From an uncultured bacterium (lineage in GTDB: Bacteria > Fidelibacterota > Marinisomatia > Marinisomatales > UBA1611): DNA of 64,000 nt. The DNA is taken from NCBI GenBank assembly GCA_965660855.1, contig CBFIBM010000005.1, positions 1,466 through 65,465 on the forward strand, read 5' to 3'. Within the stretch, counting starts at the first letter, position 1. The number at the start of each line of letters is the position of its first letter. Positions 17,104 to 41,861 of this stretch are shown here, one piece after another. The position numbers were made by a program, and so were the translations under genes. The notes under the pieces are model-generated. The model did not search any database. It had not been told where the DNA came from and worked only from the letters and a program-made list of their open reading frames with translations.

Positions 17104-17134
17104 AAAAAAAAAAGCCTCATATTTGAGGCTTTTT
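17104..17134 (-). terminator. Intrinsic terminator after tRNA-Gly
   Basis: AAAGCCTC-ATATTT-GAGGCTTT hairpin followed by a long T run on the minus strand. Confidence 0.75.
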
Positions 17135-17135
17135 G

Positions 17136-17208
17136 AGCGAGAGACGAGATTCGAACTCGCGACCCCCACCTTGGCAAGGTGATGCTCTACCAGCTGAGCT
17201 ACTCTCGC
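17136..17208 (-). tRNA. tRNA-Gly(GCC)
   Basis: GCGAGAGTAGCTCAGCTGGTAGAGCATCACCTT-GCC-AAGGTG...GAGTTCGAATCTCGTCTCTCGCT. CCA not encoded. Confidence 0.96.
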
Positions 17209-17251: not shown

Positions 17252-17698
17252 TTAAGACAATGTTGTTTTTGGGTAAAATTCAAAAATTCTTTTTTTGTTG
17301 ATAAATATAGTATAAGAAAATATAAGTAATGTGAAATTTTCTATTAATTTTTGAACACCGACCATTTCTCCTTCCTTTAAACCACAGCCACACTCTATAT
17401 TAAATCCTCTAATCATCGCTTGAAAAACTAAAAAATTAAACATGATTAAAAGCACTCCAGTGGTTAGAACTGAACCATCTATCATGATCCCTAATATTAA
17501 GCTGGTTCCAATAAAAAGTTCTATCCACGGCAATATGATAGCTACAAAATTTTCAAGACCAAAAGGAATAAAATGATAGTTTGAAATATCCCTTGCAAAT
17601 TGCTGAGGATTTAATAATTTATCATAACTAGCAACTATAAATACTAACCCTAATACTATACGCATGAAGAGAATTATATATGGATGTACCTTATTCAT
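17252..17698 (-). CDS. MauE/DoxX family redox-associated membrane protein
   Basis: RIVLGLVFIVASYDK, PQQF...I.NY, LPWIELFIG and the RGFNIECGCG motif. ATG 17698 overlaps the rhodanese stop. Confidence 0.85.
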   Translation of the reverse strand: MNKVHPYIILFMRIVLGLVFIVASYDKLLNPQQFARDISNYHFIPFGLENFVAIILPWIELFIGTSLILGIMIDGSVLTTGVLLIMFNFLVFQAMIRGFNIECGCGLKEGEMVGVQKLIENFTLLIFSYTIFINKKRIFEFYPKTTLS

Positions 17699-18173
17699 AT
17701 TTTTGAATTTCATAACCTGAATCCGTCCATGATTTCCAACCTCCGCTAAAAACAAGAATATTTGTGAAACCTAAATCTTGGAGTTCAAATGCTAAATCCT
17801 CACTAGAACCACAATCATCATCACTACAATAGACAACAAAAGCAGAATCAAGACCTATAACACTGTCAATTTTAGAGCTTAATATCTCAATATCGTCATT
17901 AAAAATAGCTCCAGGAATTATTCCATCAGAAAGATATTCTTCTGCTCGCGCATCCACAAATAGAGTTTTTTTTGAGTACAAATCTAGAGCTAGTTTAATA
18001 TCAATTTTACGAATATTTGCTAATTGATTAATAGACTTTAAATAATCTGAGGAAGTTATTTCCTCAATCGATTTCGCAACAAGCGGTAAACTATTCTGAT
18101 TTATAAAATTTACTCCTAGTCCTAAAAATGAAGGTACGATAATAAGGTAAATAAATTGAAGCCTAAAATTCAT
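17691..18173 (-). CDS. Membrane-anchored rhodanese-like protein
   Basis: N-terminal TM helix. Motifs FVDARAEEY...IIPGA, VVYCSDDDCGSS and LGFTNILVFSGGWKSW. Confidence 0.88.
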   Translation of the reverse strand: MNFRLQFIYLIIVPSFLGLGVNFINQNSLPLVAKSIEEITSSDYLKSINQLANIRKIDIKLALDLYSKKTLFVDARAEEYLSDGIIPGAIFNDDIEILSSKIDSVIGLDSAFVVYCSDDDCGSSEDLAFELQDLGFTNILVFSGGWKSWTDSGYEIQKYE

Positions 18174-18190: not shown

Positions 18191-19384
18191 TTAGTGATTA
18201 TGCCCGTCATGACTAGAATGATCGAGTGGTGATTTTTTTGCTTTACTATTTTTTTTATTTTTACTCTTGGGGTTTAAAATATCGCAAGTAGAAACTGCTG
18301 AATTAACAAACTTAAGCATAGCCGGATCTTCTCCTATTTTTTGATTTAATGCTATAGTTTTATACCTTAGTTTATTAACTGCTTTTTCTATTAATTCTTT
18401 TGAGACAATTTCATCTTCTTTATATCCATCAATCAACTTTAAAACATTTGATTGGTCAGCATATATTTGTTCAAGAGTCTTATTGGGATTCTTTTTCTGT
18501 AAACGCTCAAATCTTTTCTTTATCTGATTTATTTTTTTCTCTTCTGCTGTAATATCTACAAAGTTTTCATTCTTGTCTTTAATTGTTAAATCTGCAGTGA
18601 TTAAGTACTTACCCTGCTTACCACAAGAATAAACTAATGGCCCATCTGATGCTTGAGAGTTGCTGGAGCGAGTCATATTTGTACTTCCACTGGCAATAAT
18701 AAAGTCTGCGTTAGGAAAGTTTTCATTTAAGCTTGATTGTTCACTCCTAGTACAATTAGCAAGGAGAACAGTAACATCAACATCTTTAGATAAAGTATTT
18801 ATAAAATTATTACCAGCATCAATATAATTATCGGCTATCATAGTTGTGGATGTGTCAGGTAAATTACTTGTGACTCCAATAACCCCAATTTTCAAACCAT
18901 CCCTTTTAAAAATTTTATAAGGTTGAAATAATAAATCTTTTGATTTTGCATTTCTTAAATTTGCAGAGATAAATGGTATTTCTGTATTTTGAGTTATATC
19001 TTCTAAAAAATTTAATCCATTCAACACTTCATAATGTCCAACATTGATAATATTACAACCAATTTTTTCATATCCATTGATAATGGATTTTGCTCTATGA
19101 ATTTCAGATTTTAAATTTTTATCATTTAATTTTGAGGTACTAAAAAAGATATCACCTGCATCCAAAATTAAAGGATCAATTCCACTCGCTTTCATTTCAT
19201 TAATTTTTACAAGTCTTCTTGACAGACCGCCAAGAGGATTTTTCTTTCAACCACAAGGATCTAATTGACCATGCACACTACCTGATAGAATCATTGTAAA
19301 AGACCCTGCCGATGTTTCAGAGCAAGACCAAAATATTAAACAACATAGAATATAAATTACTGTGCCTTGTATTTTCCGTTTCAT
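18191..19384 (-). CDS. UshA-like (5'-nucleotidase N-domain fold) selenoprotein, lipoprotein; Sec at codon 46 (C-G-U motif)
   Basis: ATG 19384 is in frame with the 334-aa ORF: MKRKIQGTVIYILCCLIFWSC...SGSVHGQLDPCG-TGA(19247-19249)-KKNPLGGLSRR...DAGD. It is the only in-frame stop, and a SECIS-like hairpin follows. Total 397 aa. Confidence 0.9.
19217..19235 (-). promoter_or_regulatory. Bacterial SECIS element of the UshA-like gene
   Basis: UCUUGGC-GGUCU-GUCAAGA, a 7-bp stem starting 11 nt after the UGA. The apical GGUCU resembles the E. coli fdhF SECIS loop and spacing. Confidence 0.85.
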
Positions 19385-19387
19385 TTT

Positions 19388-19714
19388 TTAACCACCACTT
19401 AATTTTACGTTATAACCCTTTTTAATTAATTCTTTTTGTATAAACTCTCTTTTATTTCCTTGAATTAAAATTTCGTTATTTTTAATAGCTCCTCCAACTC
19501 CACATTTTTTCTTTAGTTCTTTTGATAGAGTGGTAATATTTTTCTTTGACTCTGATAAGCCTTTAATTACGGTTACAACCTTTCCACCACCTCTTCGATC
19601 TAAGTGCAAACGTAAATGCTGCTGATTTGGGTTAATATTTTTATACAATCCAGTATCATCATCTATTTTTTTTATAGAGGTGTCTGTTGAGTAAACAATA
19701 TTGGTCTTATTCAT
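19388..19714 (-). CDS. yciH: SUI1/eIF1-family translation factor YciH
   Basis: IVYSTD, RRGGGKVVTVIKGL, LKKKCGVGG and EILIQG...KLSGG. Confidence 0.92.
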   Translation of the reverse strand: MNKTNIVYSTDTSIKKIDDDTGLYKNINPNQQHLRLHLDRRGGGKVVTVIKGLSESKKNITTLSKELKKKCGVGGAIKNNEILIQGNKREFIQKELIKKGYNVKLSGG

Positions 19715-40829: not shown

Positions 40830-41861
40830 TTATATCTCTTTTTTAATTTTTTCTAACTGTTTTAAATAGTATTTATCATCTGGTTTAAATTTTATACATT
40901 TTTTTATTTCATTAAGTGCCAGATTATACTTTTTAAGCTTATATAAAATCTCAGCTTTTGTATCTATAAACATATATTTTTGTTTTTCATCTTCCACTTT
41001 TAAAATAGCATAATTTATTTTTTCTAATGCTATATCTAATTTTATTTCTAGTTCACTCATCCTCCAAGAGAAACTATTTAACATACGTAATGAAACATTA
41101 TCATCATATTCAATTAACTTTAAAAAAATATCAGCTTCAAGCTTTTCTAATCCTCCCTTCTTACGAATAAAATACATAGCCTCTGAAAGAGCTGTTTGAA
41201 TATTAGGACTTTCTGGATTTTCATCAACATATGTCAAAAGAAGATTATAATCTTGATTTTCTCTAGCATCATATAAATAGGAAAAAAATTCTGCAATACC
41301 GGATGAATCAACGTTTTCAACTAAAATAGCATCAATCATTTGTTTTGCAGATATAAAATCACCTTTTTCTTCATATTTTCTAGCTAATGTGAACATGGTA
41401 TTAAAGCTACGTGGATCTAATTGAAACTTATTTAGTAAAGATTTTATAGTATTCTTTCCTCCTTTAATTCGCTTGAGTTGTTTTAAAAAATCAGGTGCTT
41501 TTTTGTAACCAACAATCCTATCTATTTCTGTTCCTTTATTATTTGTTATTACAACAGTAGGATAACCACGTATATTGTATCGCTTTGCGATTTCAGGACC
41601 ATTCCCGCTCTCTGCATCAACCTTAATACTAATTAGATTATTGAAAGCATATTTTATTACATTATTATCACCAAATGTATCGGCATCCAGCCGGTCACAC
41701 CAAGTTCACCAATCAGTCTCAAAGTCAATTAAAATTAATTTATCTGTTTCGATATTAAAGATTTGATTCAGATCTTCGTAAGGATACCAAGGATATTCAA
41801 TTTTTTTACTACAATTACTAATTAAAAAAAAAGTAAAAAAGGAAAGAATAATCTTATTCAT
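40830..41861 (-). CDS. Thioredoxin-fold selenoprotein (W-U-T-W-C), lipoprotein with C-terminal TPR-like domain; Sec at codon 52
   Basis: ATG 41861 overlaps the thioesterase stop. MNKIILSFFTFFLISNC...LILIDFETDW-TGA(41706-41708)-TWCDRLDADTF...KVDAE...YNIRGYPTVV...EIDRIVGY continues in frame into the 188-aa TPR ORF. Total 343 aa. Confidence 0.9.
41675..41700 (-). promoter_or_regulatory. Bacterial SECIS-like element of the thioredoxin-TPR gene
   Basis: GUGUG-AC-CGGC-UGGAU-GCCG-A-UACAU. The GC stem starts 12 nt after UGA and the apical loop 16 nt after, with G at loop position 2. Confidence 0.75.

Follow-up and report, generated by a model that had tools for sequence, protein, structure and literature searches.

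A short UshA-like selenoprotein of a marine bacterium, probably of the Marinimicrobia, predicted to carry a Cys-Gly-Sec motif on a 5'-nucleotidase fold and encoded beside rhodanese and MauE genes

UshA-like proteins with a CxU motif have been listed as a predicted selenoprotein family since the 2008 ocean selenoproteome (Zhang and Gladyshev, PMC2398784), whose table of Global Ocean Sampling data records 'COG0737, UshA-like' with 76 selenocysteine (Sec) sequences from 20 samples, along with 92 Cys homologues. The table entry and the supplement reads for the family give no function, full-length architecture or gene context. It is listed again in a 2022 review and in a 2026 review (PMC13188914), the latter under NF041198 as 'UshA-like (seleno)protein', and the mentions of SAR406 in a 2016 ISME J paper concern an orphan SelD only. 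Here we describe a member of this family encoded on the minus strand of a 64,000-nucleotide (nt) stretch of contig CBFIBM010000005.1 from an uncultured bacterium (the window, in whose positions all coordinates are given), together with the cassette that it forms with genes for a rhodanese-domain protein and a MauE-type membrane protein on the same strand. The best overall explanation of the gene, which we hold at a probability of about 0.88, is that it encodes a 397-residue exported lipoprotein of the COG0737 UshA-like CxU family in which the UGA at codon 46 is read as Sec.

The assignment to this family is direct. The supplement of the 2008 study holds the read ...SGSMHGQLDPCGUKKNPMGGLSRRYVKI..., a near residue-for-residue match to the N-terminus of the window protein from the same clade (PMC2398784). 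The window protein thus belongs to the 'COG0737 UshA-like, CxU' family and, since that family was predicted in 2008, the selenoprotein call is not new. An earlier reading of this DNA, made from the sequence alone, had described UshA-like CxU proteins as a reported selenoprotein family, correctly in the light of the 2008 table, its supplement and the later reviews. Meanwhile, the MauE component of the cassette has a recently described counterpart: MauE proteins from two other phyla replace DsbB in E. coli, which requires their CXC motif (X usually Gly), predicted to lie in the periplasm, and probably involves quinone (Gonzalez et al. 2026, bioRxiv 10.64898/2026.03.05.709764). The words rhodanese, 'selen' and Marinimicrobia have 0 occurrences each in the text of that preprint. 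A literature search for MauE together with rhodanese or DoxX returned nothing relevant, and no published link of the UshA-like selenoprotein to a MauE/rhodanese relay was found in full-text literature searches.

Under translation table 11, the UshA-like gene appears as an open reading frame (ORF) of 334 aa at 18191..19195. Upstream of it the frame stays open for 63 more codons, with a sole TGA at 19249-19247, and starts with an ATG at 19384-19382. Between this ATG and the TAA (19390-19388) of a SUI1/yciH-like gene lie 3 nt (19387-19385). The sequence-only reading had proposed this same extension through a single TGA to an ATG just past the yciH stop, and its coordinates all agree with ours. 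The read-through product of 397 aa has the N-terminus MKRKIQGTVIYILCCLIFWSC and reads SGSVHGQLDPCG-U-KKNPLGGLSRR around codon 46. It opens with a signal peptide whose W/F-S-C ending is retained by most Sec-form orthologues, and Cys22 is probably lipidated. The extension had also been said to restore a lipoprotein signal and the first metallophosphoesterase strand; the F-W-S-C signal is indeed present and the strand is restored as part of the fold, but its catalytic motif is degenerate.

The evidence that carries the Sec assignment is comparative. We compared 50 Sec-form loci, 30 from the window's family and 20 from ten other families of the same order, and the codon that follows C-G is TGA in 30/30 and 20/20 of them, respectively. 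A search with the 397-aa product found a match to the read-through protein in 183 of the 201 genomes of the order. Among the matches listed, all those outside genus g26 have the in-frame TGA, and the 10 stop-free matches all come from g26, where the motif reads D-C-G-C-P-K with Cys at the Sec position (10/10). A second switch between Sec and Cys lies inside another genus of the phylum, in which genome G224 has E-P-C-G-TGA-K-T and genome G229 has E-P-C-G-C-K-T; a long form of the protein (G224:C47) reads CGC at the motif. The Cys forms are continuous frames, and the C, G and U/C of the motif are invariant in 40/40 aligned sequences. Homologues with either TGA or Cys at codon 46 had been anticipated from the sequence, and this is what the loci display, with TGA in 50/50 Sec-form loci and Cys throughout g26 and in one further genus. 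A sequencing error as the origin of the TGA is ruled out, without recourse to reads, because the same codon recurs in 50 independent genomes. Judging from the recurrent TGA, the Cys homologues, the covarying stem and the Sec machinery presented below, all of which support the original claim, TGA codon 46 almost certainly encodes Sec in a predicted exported lipoprotein.

The g26 lineage (loci L048-L057 and L095, from genomes of 0.7-1.1 Mb) encodes the Cys form with a signal peptide devoid of the lipobox Cys, and displays no adjacent rhodanese or MauE gene. selA was above cut-off in 0/5 g26 genomes (95-99% complete). The Sec trait and the partner genes appear to have been shed together in this lineage. 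Many genomes of the order also encode a second short-form paralogue, about 40-45% identical and with one in-frame TGA (e.g., G123:C206, G126:C48, G117:C37, and G007:C27), while the genome of the window (2.09 Mb in 81 contigs, 84% complete) yielded a single copy of the UshA-like gene.

The same genome encodes the machinery that such decoding would use. The genes selA (494 bits) and selB (303 bits) adjoin each other and, like selD (389 bits), score above curated cut-offs. A tRNA-Sec with anticodon TCA was detected at 63 bits, likewise above its curated cut-off (tRNA-SeC according to ARAGORN). A search of the genome for selA, selB, selC and selD had been suggested as a check, and selA, selB, selD and tRNA-Sec were all found. 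We propose that UGA codon 46 would be decoded as Sec by this SelA/SelB/SelD/tRNA-Sec system.

Public protein databases give a different picture of the site, and two alternative readings of the TGA follow from it. Among 16 aligned database homologues, 12 span the Sec site, and all 12 have W there (P0006, P0016-P0019, P0056, P0057, P0064, P0069, P0071, P0085, and P0116, from short metagenome contigs). At face value, this supports an organism that decodes TGA as Trp (table 4 or 25) and makes an ordinary Trp-containing lipoprotein, and Trp in homologues was what the sequence-only reading had named as evidence against Sec. The genomic DNA says otherwise: the codon is TGA in all 50 Sec-form loci and TGG in 0/60 loci (the 50 Sec-form loci and 10 of g26), the alternative residue being Cys. 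Moreover, locus L035 has TGA at this codon, and its translation is almost identical to the W-bearing protein P0018. Because TGA, and never TGG, is the codon in every Sec-form locus of this clade's genomic DNA, we take the W as a table-4 artefact; most likely it is a TGA that metagenome gene callers translated under table 4, to which they likely switch on short AT-rich contigs. The stop codons and Trp codons of the window also argue against Trp decoding, as TGA terminates 7 of its 42 long ORFs, where read-through adds just 0-20 codons, and TGG supplies Trp at 13.7 per 1000 codons. The complete Sec machinery points the same way. Trp decoding is thus already contradicted, and we leave it next to no probability. 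Such a systematic Trp artefact could mislead comparisons of Sec, Cys and Trp forms. One database homologue, 54% identical, is labelled Marinimicrobia by its source, and the bacterium of the window probably belongs to the Marinimicrobia (SAR406) as well.

The second alternative is that the TGA is a true stop, so that the locus is a pseudogene or yields only the 334-aa product from Met64, preceded by a 45-codon leader peptide. This is the choice that gene callers made for most homologues, and a Met codon does follow at position 64. Query coverage is <=87% for as many as 101 of the 120 best database homologues, and many homologues start at the Met after the TGA, which bears out the earlier statement that standard pipelines truncate the gene. 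However, the sole signal peptide is encoded upstream of the TGA, as is the fold's first strand, and this part is conserved as protein across the order with C-G-U invariant. The 334-aa product would be left without export and without the invariant motif of its family, and the Cys forms are uninterrupted frames. A true stop is therefore a very improbable reading of this codon.

Decoding of the UGA as Sec would be directed by a small selenocysteine insertion sequence (SECIS) hairpin inside the coding sequence (CDS), with a core of 5 base pairs (bp) and a GGUCU loop located 11-13 nt past the UGA. In the SECIS of the E. coli fdhF type, the hairpin lies within the CDS 11 nt after the UGA and has G and U in its small apical loop. 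The window's hairpin starts 11 nt past the TGA and consists of the arms TCTTGGC (19235-19229) and GTCAAGA (19223-19217) around the loop GGTCT (19228-19224). For each of the 50 Sec-form loci, the 66 nt surrounding the TGA were aligned, and pairs were counted on the 48 distinct sequences. Despite the synonymous sites available to Gly-Gly-Leu, no variation occurs among the 50 loci in the T-G-A, in the run G-G-C-G-G-T-C-T-G or in parts of the 3' arm, and GGCGGTCTG is constant at its synonymous sites in 50/50 loci. The five inner pairs of the stem are formed in 47-48 of the 48 sequences. Pair 24-36, which links the third base of a Leu/Met/Ile/Ala codon with the third base of a Ser/Pro codon, occurs as five pair types (GC 27, AU 13, UA 4, CG 2, and GU 2) and is unpaired in 0/48. 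The observed covariation score was reached by 0/500 shuffles, and paired cells amount to 82.9%, against 23-47% when the partner is slid by 1-3 columns. Outside these, the remaining two pairs of the 7-bp stem seen in the window fail to form in 29/48 and 11/48 sequences; therefore, the conserved element is a 5-bp stem with the GGUCU loop. Of the 'textbook' hairpin announced by the sequence-only reading, the 7-bp stem, the GGUCU loop and the 11-nt spacing are all present in the window, but only 5 bp of the stem are conserved. At the same site, the Cys forms read GGAGGATTG, GGTGGATTG, GGAGGGCTA and others, which vary freely, and the hairpin is absent. The constraint at the RNA level goes with the TGA, since the Cys forms lack the signature at these sites.

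Some results weigh against this reading of the gene. By itself, the hairpin does not stand out from shuffled sequence: the single-sequence fold of the 66 nt has z = -0.70, and an equal or better fold was obtained with 43 of 200 shuffles. An Rfam search of 19100-19400 returned no SECIS and no other credible family. We consider the hairpin real because of the comparative evidence, namely the TGA in 50/50 loci and the covariation of the stem. As to the family, the read-through protein matches the NCBIfam equivalog model NF041198 UshA_like_PCGU with an E of 3.6e-62 over profile positions 3-394 of 519, but its score of 210.6 bits (201.2 bits on the genome) falls below the cut-off of 275.

This shortfall is shared by the short forms of the phylum. 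Out of 151 phylum genomes, 140 have a match to NF041198, in which the best short Sec form reaches 244 bits and none passes; the sole pass is a stop-free long form of 510 aa. Pfam returned no family for the read-through protein at E up to 0.01 and only noise at E up to 10. The window protein is a short, single-domain form below the NF041198 cut-off, and public catalogues therefore hold it either cut at Met64 or with a spurious Trp. One practical value of these results is that they document an annotation problem for the marine short form.

Table 1. Coordinates of the UshA-like selenoprotein gene, its elements and its neighbours in the window
Feature	Position	Strand	Basis or remark
Full UshA-like selenoprotein CDS	18191..19384	-	397 codons and TAA stop, one in-frame TGA
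Signal peptide, ending in lipobox-like F-W-S-C, putative lipidated Cys22	19319..19384	-	Sequence
Predicted Cys44-Gly45-Sec46, TGT GGT TGA, TGA at 19249-19247	19247..19255	-	D-P-C-G-U at residues 42-46
Putative SECIS hairpin, 7 bp with GGUCU loop (19228-19224); conserved core 19233-19229 : 19223-19219	19217..19235	-	Fold and covariation
SUI1/YciH-type translation factor, upstream	19388..19714	-	PF01253 SUI1, E 1.4e-18
Rhodanese-domain protein, downstream gene 1, 160 aa	17691..18173	-	PF00581, E 2.5e-11
MauE/DoxX membrane protein, downstream gene 2	17252..17698	-	PF07291, E 4.6e-24
tRNA-Gly (17208-17135), then terminator-like hairpin (17134-17109)	17109..17208	-	Consensus matches only

The genes around the selenoprotein provided insights into the process in which it may take part (Table 1). 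The SUI1 gene adjoins it in 29/29 loci of the same family and in 11 of 18 distant loci. Downstream, the rhodanese gene begins 17 nt past the selenoprotein stop and encodes a hydrophobic N-terminal anchor and a Y-C-x4-C-G motif, of which Y-C-x4-C is present in all 42 sequences that reach the motif. The best NCBIfam match of this rhodanese is NF041203 'rhodanese_LYCAU, rhodanese-related (seleno)protein' (43 bits, below the cut-off of 115), and its active-site loop, Y-C-S-D-D-D-C-G, is an unusually acidic C-x4-C loop. The MauE gene follows, with an 8-nt overlap between its ATG at 17698 and the rhodanese stop (the ORF as called mechanically starts with a TTG at 17755). Its C-G-C motif was found in 43/43 orthologues, and the loop that carries it probably faces the periplasm, because of the positive-inside rule and the K-K-R after the last helix. 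The tRNA-Gly and the terminator-like hairpin likely close the transcription unit. UshA-like, rhodanese and MauE genes follow one another in this order in 26/29 loci of the same family and in 18/18 loci from ten other families; the three exceptions within the family all fall in a single genus, with contig ends truncating two of them. No MauE besides that of the cassette was found in the 84%-complete genome, nor any DsbB or VKOR, and this MauE may be the organism's only membrane disulfide-forming enzyme.

Two further in-frame TGA codons were observed in this genome. The selD gene, itself a selenoprotein gene, contains one in the context G-S-G-U-A-C-K-I-G-P-G (G000:C19:7427-8353, locus L008, TGA at locus position 1531), and the hairpin predicted after it is only weak (-3.7 kcal/mol), in contrast to both of those in the window. 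The second belongs to a probable selenoprotein elsewhere in the window (40830-41861, minus strand, TGA at 41706-41708), with 56 open codons upstream of the TGA and 291 downstream. This protein displays a lipoprotein-like leader (LISNC), a thioredoxin fold (PF13098, E 1.3e-12) and the motif W-U-T-W-C at the TGA, after which comes a hairpin of -12.3 kcal/mol. An exported UxxC thioredoxin such as this could be a client of MauE.

To characterize the fold, an alignment of 40 sequences (35 Sec and 5 Cys forms) was used for an AlphaFold2 model in which Sec was modelled as Cys. The model has a mean predicted local distance difference test score of 89.6 and a predicted template modelling score of 0.84. 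Its best structural matches are 5'-nucleotidases, which have a calcineurin-like metallophosphoesterase fold in their N-terminal domain (Foldseek E of ~5e-20), and on which VIA-align superposes model residues 25-372 at residues 26-336 (Z 31.8, root mean square deviation 2.3 A, 278 residues). The likeness extends to SoxB (VIA-align Z 29.3; TIGR04486 E 1.4e-13). The structural alignment stops at residue 336-361 of 5'-nucleotidases that are 515-529 residues long; we conclude that the C-terminal nucleotide-binding domain is absent, because the model aligns to the N-terminal domain and linker helix only.

Comparison with E. coli UshA (from NC_000913.3; hhalign probability 98.7%) locates P-C-G-U-K as a 5-residue insertion directly after the first metal motif. 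Residue identities in the aligned E. coli sequence match the list of ligands and catalytic residues used for this comparison. That list is D41, H43, D84, N116, H117, D120, H217, H252, and Q254, which we take to be the one given by Knofel and Strater 1999. D41 corresponds to S36 of the window protein (Asp in 0/40 sequences), H43 to H38 (His in 24/40), D84 to D78 (Asp in 32/40), N116 to H117 (Asn in 1/40), H117 to Y118 (His in 2/40), D120 to L121 (Asp in 0/40), H217 to N210 (His in 0/40), H252 to S234 (His in 0/40), and Q254 to N236 (Gln in 5/40). The residues that are invariant over the 40 sequences are C44, G45, U/C46, G52, G53, R56, D75, N114, G116, S140, N142, and S232. On this alignment and the assumed list, the dimetal ligands and the catalytic His-Asp of UshA are replaced throughout the family. 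The protein is, according to the model, a 5'-nucleotidase fold without the canonical catalytic apparatus that has gained a Cys-x-Sec loop, and the UshA alignment suggests that this loop lies beside the former metal pocket.

The loss of the catalytic residues and the conserved rhodanese and MauE neighbours turn a protein of 'function unknown' into a testable hypothesis of selenium-dependent redox chemistry in the envelope. The likeliest function of the UshA-like selenoprotein appears to be in a periplasmic thiol/selenol relay. In such a relay, the Cys44/Sec46 pair would cycle between the selenol/thiol and selenenylsulfide states at the periplasmic side of the inner membrane, exchanging with the C-x4-C pair of the rhodanese. 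The exchange would continue, via the rhodanese or directly, to MauE as a quinone-linked, DsbB-like oxidase. That the protein is a redox protein and no phosphoesterase, with Cys44/Sec46 in exchange with the rhodanese and with MauE (either directly or by way of the rhodanese), is quite possible, at somewhat less than even odds. More tentatively still, we suggest that a phosphoesterase fold has been turned into a redox protein in which C-G-U may be the working end of a MauE-driven relay that runs via the membrane-anchored, two-cysteine rhodanese. If true, the marine SAR406/Marinimicrobia, which rank among the most abundant uncultured phyla of the ocean, would possess a selenium-dependent branch of envelope thiol oxidation, and a selenoprotein family left without a role since 2008 would receive its first function.

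The protein could instead be a true selenoprotein that is still a hydrolase, in which Cys44 and Sec46, with D75, D78, N114 and N210, form a remodelled metal or nucleophile site. Its substrate would be a sulfur or selenium ester, much as SoxB frees sulfate from a carrier-bound thiosulfonate, and the rhodanese would serve as donor or acceptor of the sulfane product. SoxB is a clear relative in both structure and sequence, the rhodanese neighbour is conserved, and so are D78 in most sequences and D75, N114, S140, N142 and S232 in all. The protein also has a His-rich C-terminal tail, H-S-S-H-D-G-H-N-H at residues 389-397 (18191-18220, minus strand), of the form H-x-G-H-[ND]-H, which is conserved in the window's family and recurs in one distant orthologue (L070) as HDHDHKHNHDHDHK. 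This may be a metal-binding tail, and could capture metal for a hydrolase. However, Lys-rich tails replace it in most other families, and the family has lost 5/7 of the assumed UshA metal ligands along with both catalytic residues. In addition, the adjacent MauE is of a type with experimental support as a disulfide-forming enzyme in the MauE preprint (10.64898/2026.03.05.709764), which fits a redox role better. We consider a hydrolase unlikely.

The redox relay has its own difficulties, which we set against it here. The active site is judged lost by an assumed list of UshA residues, and the retention of D78 and of H38 leaves room for a remodelled metal site. The partners are absent within 1.5 kb downstream in one genus of the same family (L026), and they are not adjacent in five distant short-form loci of the phylum (L105-L109), in the long-form locus or at the Cys-form locus L095. 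MauE, searched with the window's protein as query, was found in 0/5 genomes of the Cys-form lineage. With no other DsbB-type enzyme found in the window's genome, MauE may be the general oxidase of the cell and not a dedicated partner. Prediction of a complex of MauE and rhodanese (alignments A5 and A4) gave scores of 0.28 and 0.19 against a mark of 0.32, which speaks neither for nor against their interaction. A natural Cys form with adjacent partners was not found among six loci fetched.

Set beside the systems already described, the window protein shares with the COG0737 UshA-like entries of the 2008 table and supplement the motif, the clade, the in-frame TGA, the marine origin and the occurrence of Cys homologues, and differs from them in nothing of kind (PMC2398784). 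It has the P-C-G-U motif in common with NF041198, whose full-length architecture of 519 positions it does not span, as the last ~125 positions have no counterpart. Its hairpin is like the E. coli fdhF-type SECIS in its place within the CDS, its distance of 11 nt from the UGA and the G/U of its loop, and unlike it in having a conserved stem of just 5 bp, no conserved bulged U and no Rfam model. With E. coli UshA and CD73 it shares the fold of the N-terminal domain and linker helix, as well as a predicted periplasmic or surface location; it differs from them in the missing C-terminal nucleotide-binding domain, in metal ligands and a catalytic His-Asp that are not conserved, and in the P-C-G-U-K insertion. 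Finally, the cassette's MauE shares the CXC motif of the MauE-centred pathway, with Gly at X in all 43 orthologues (10.64898/2026.03.05.709764). In that preprint MauE is paired with thioredoxin-fold partners, whereas here its neighbours are a two-cysteine rhodanese and a predicted Sec lipoprotein built on a phosphoesterase fold.

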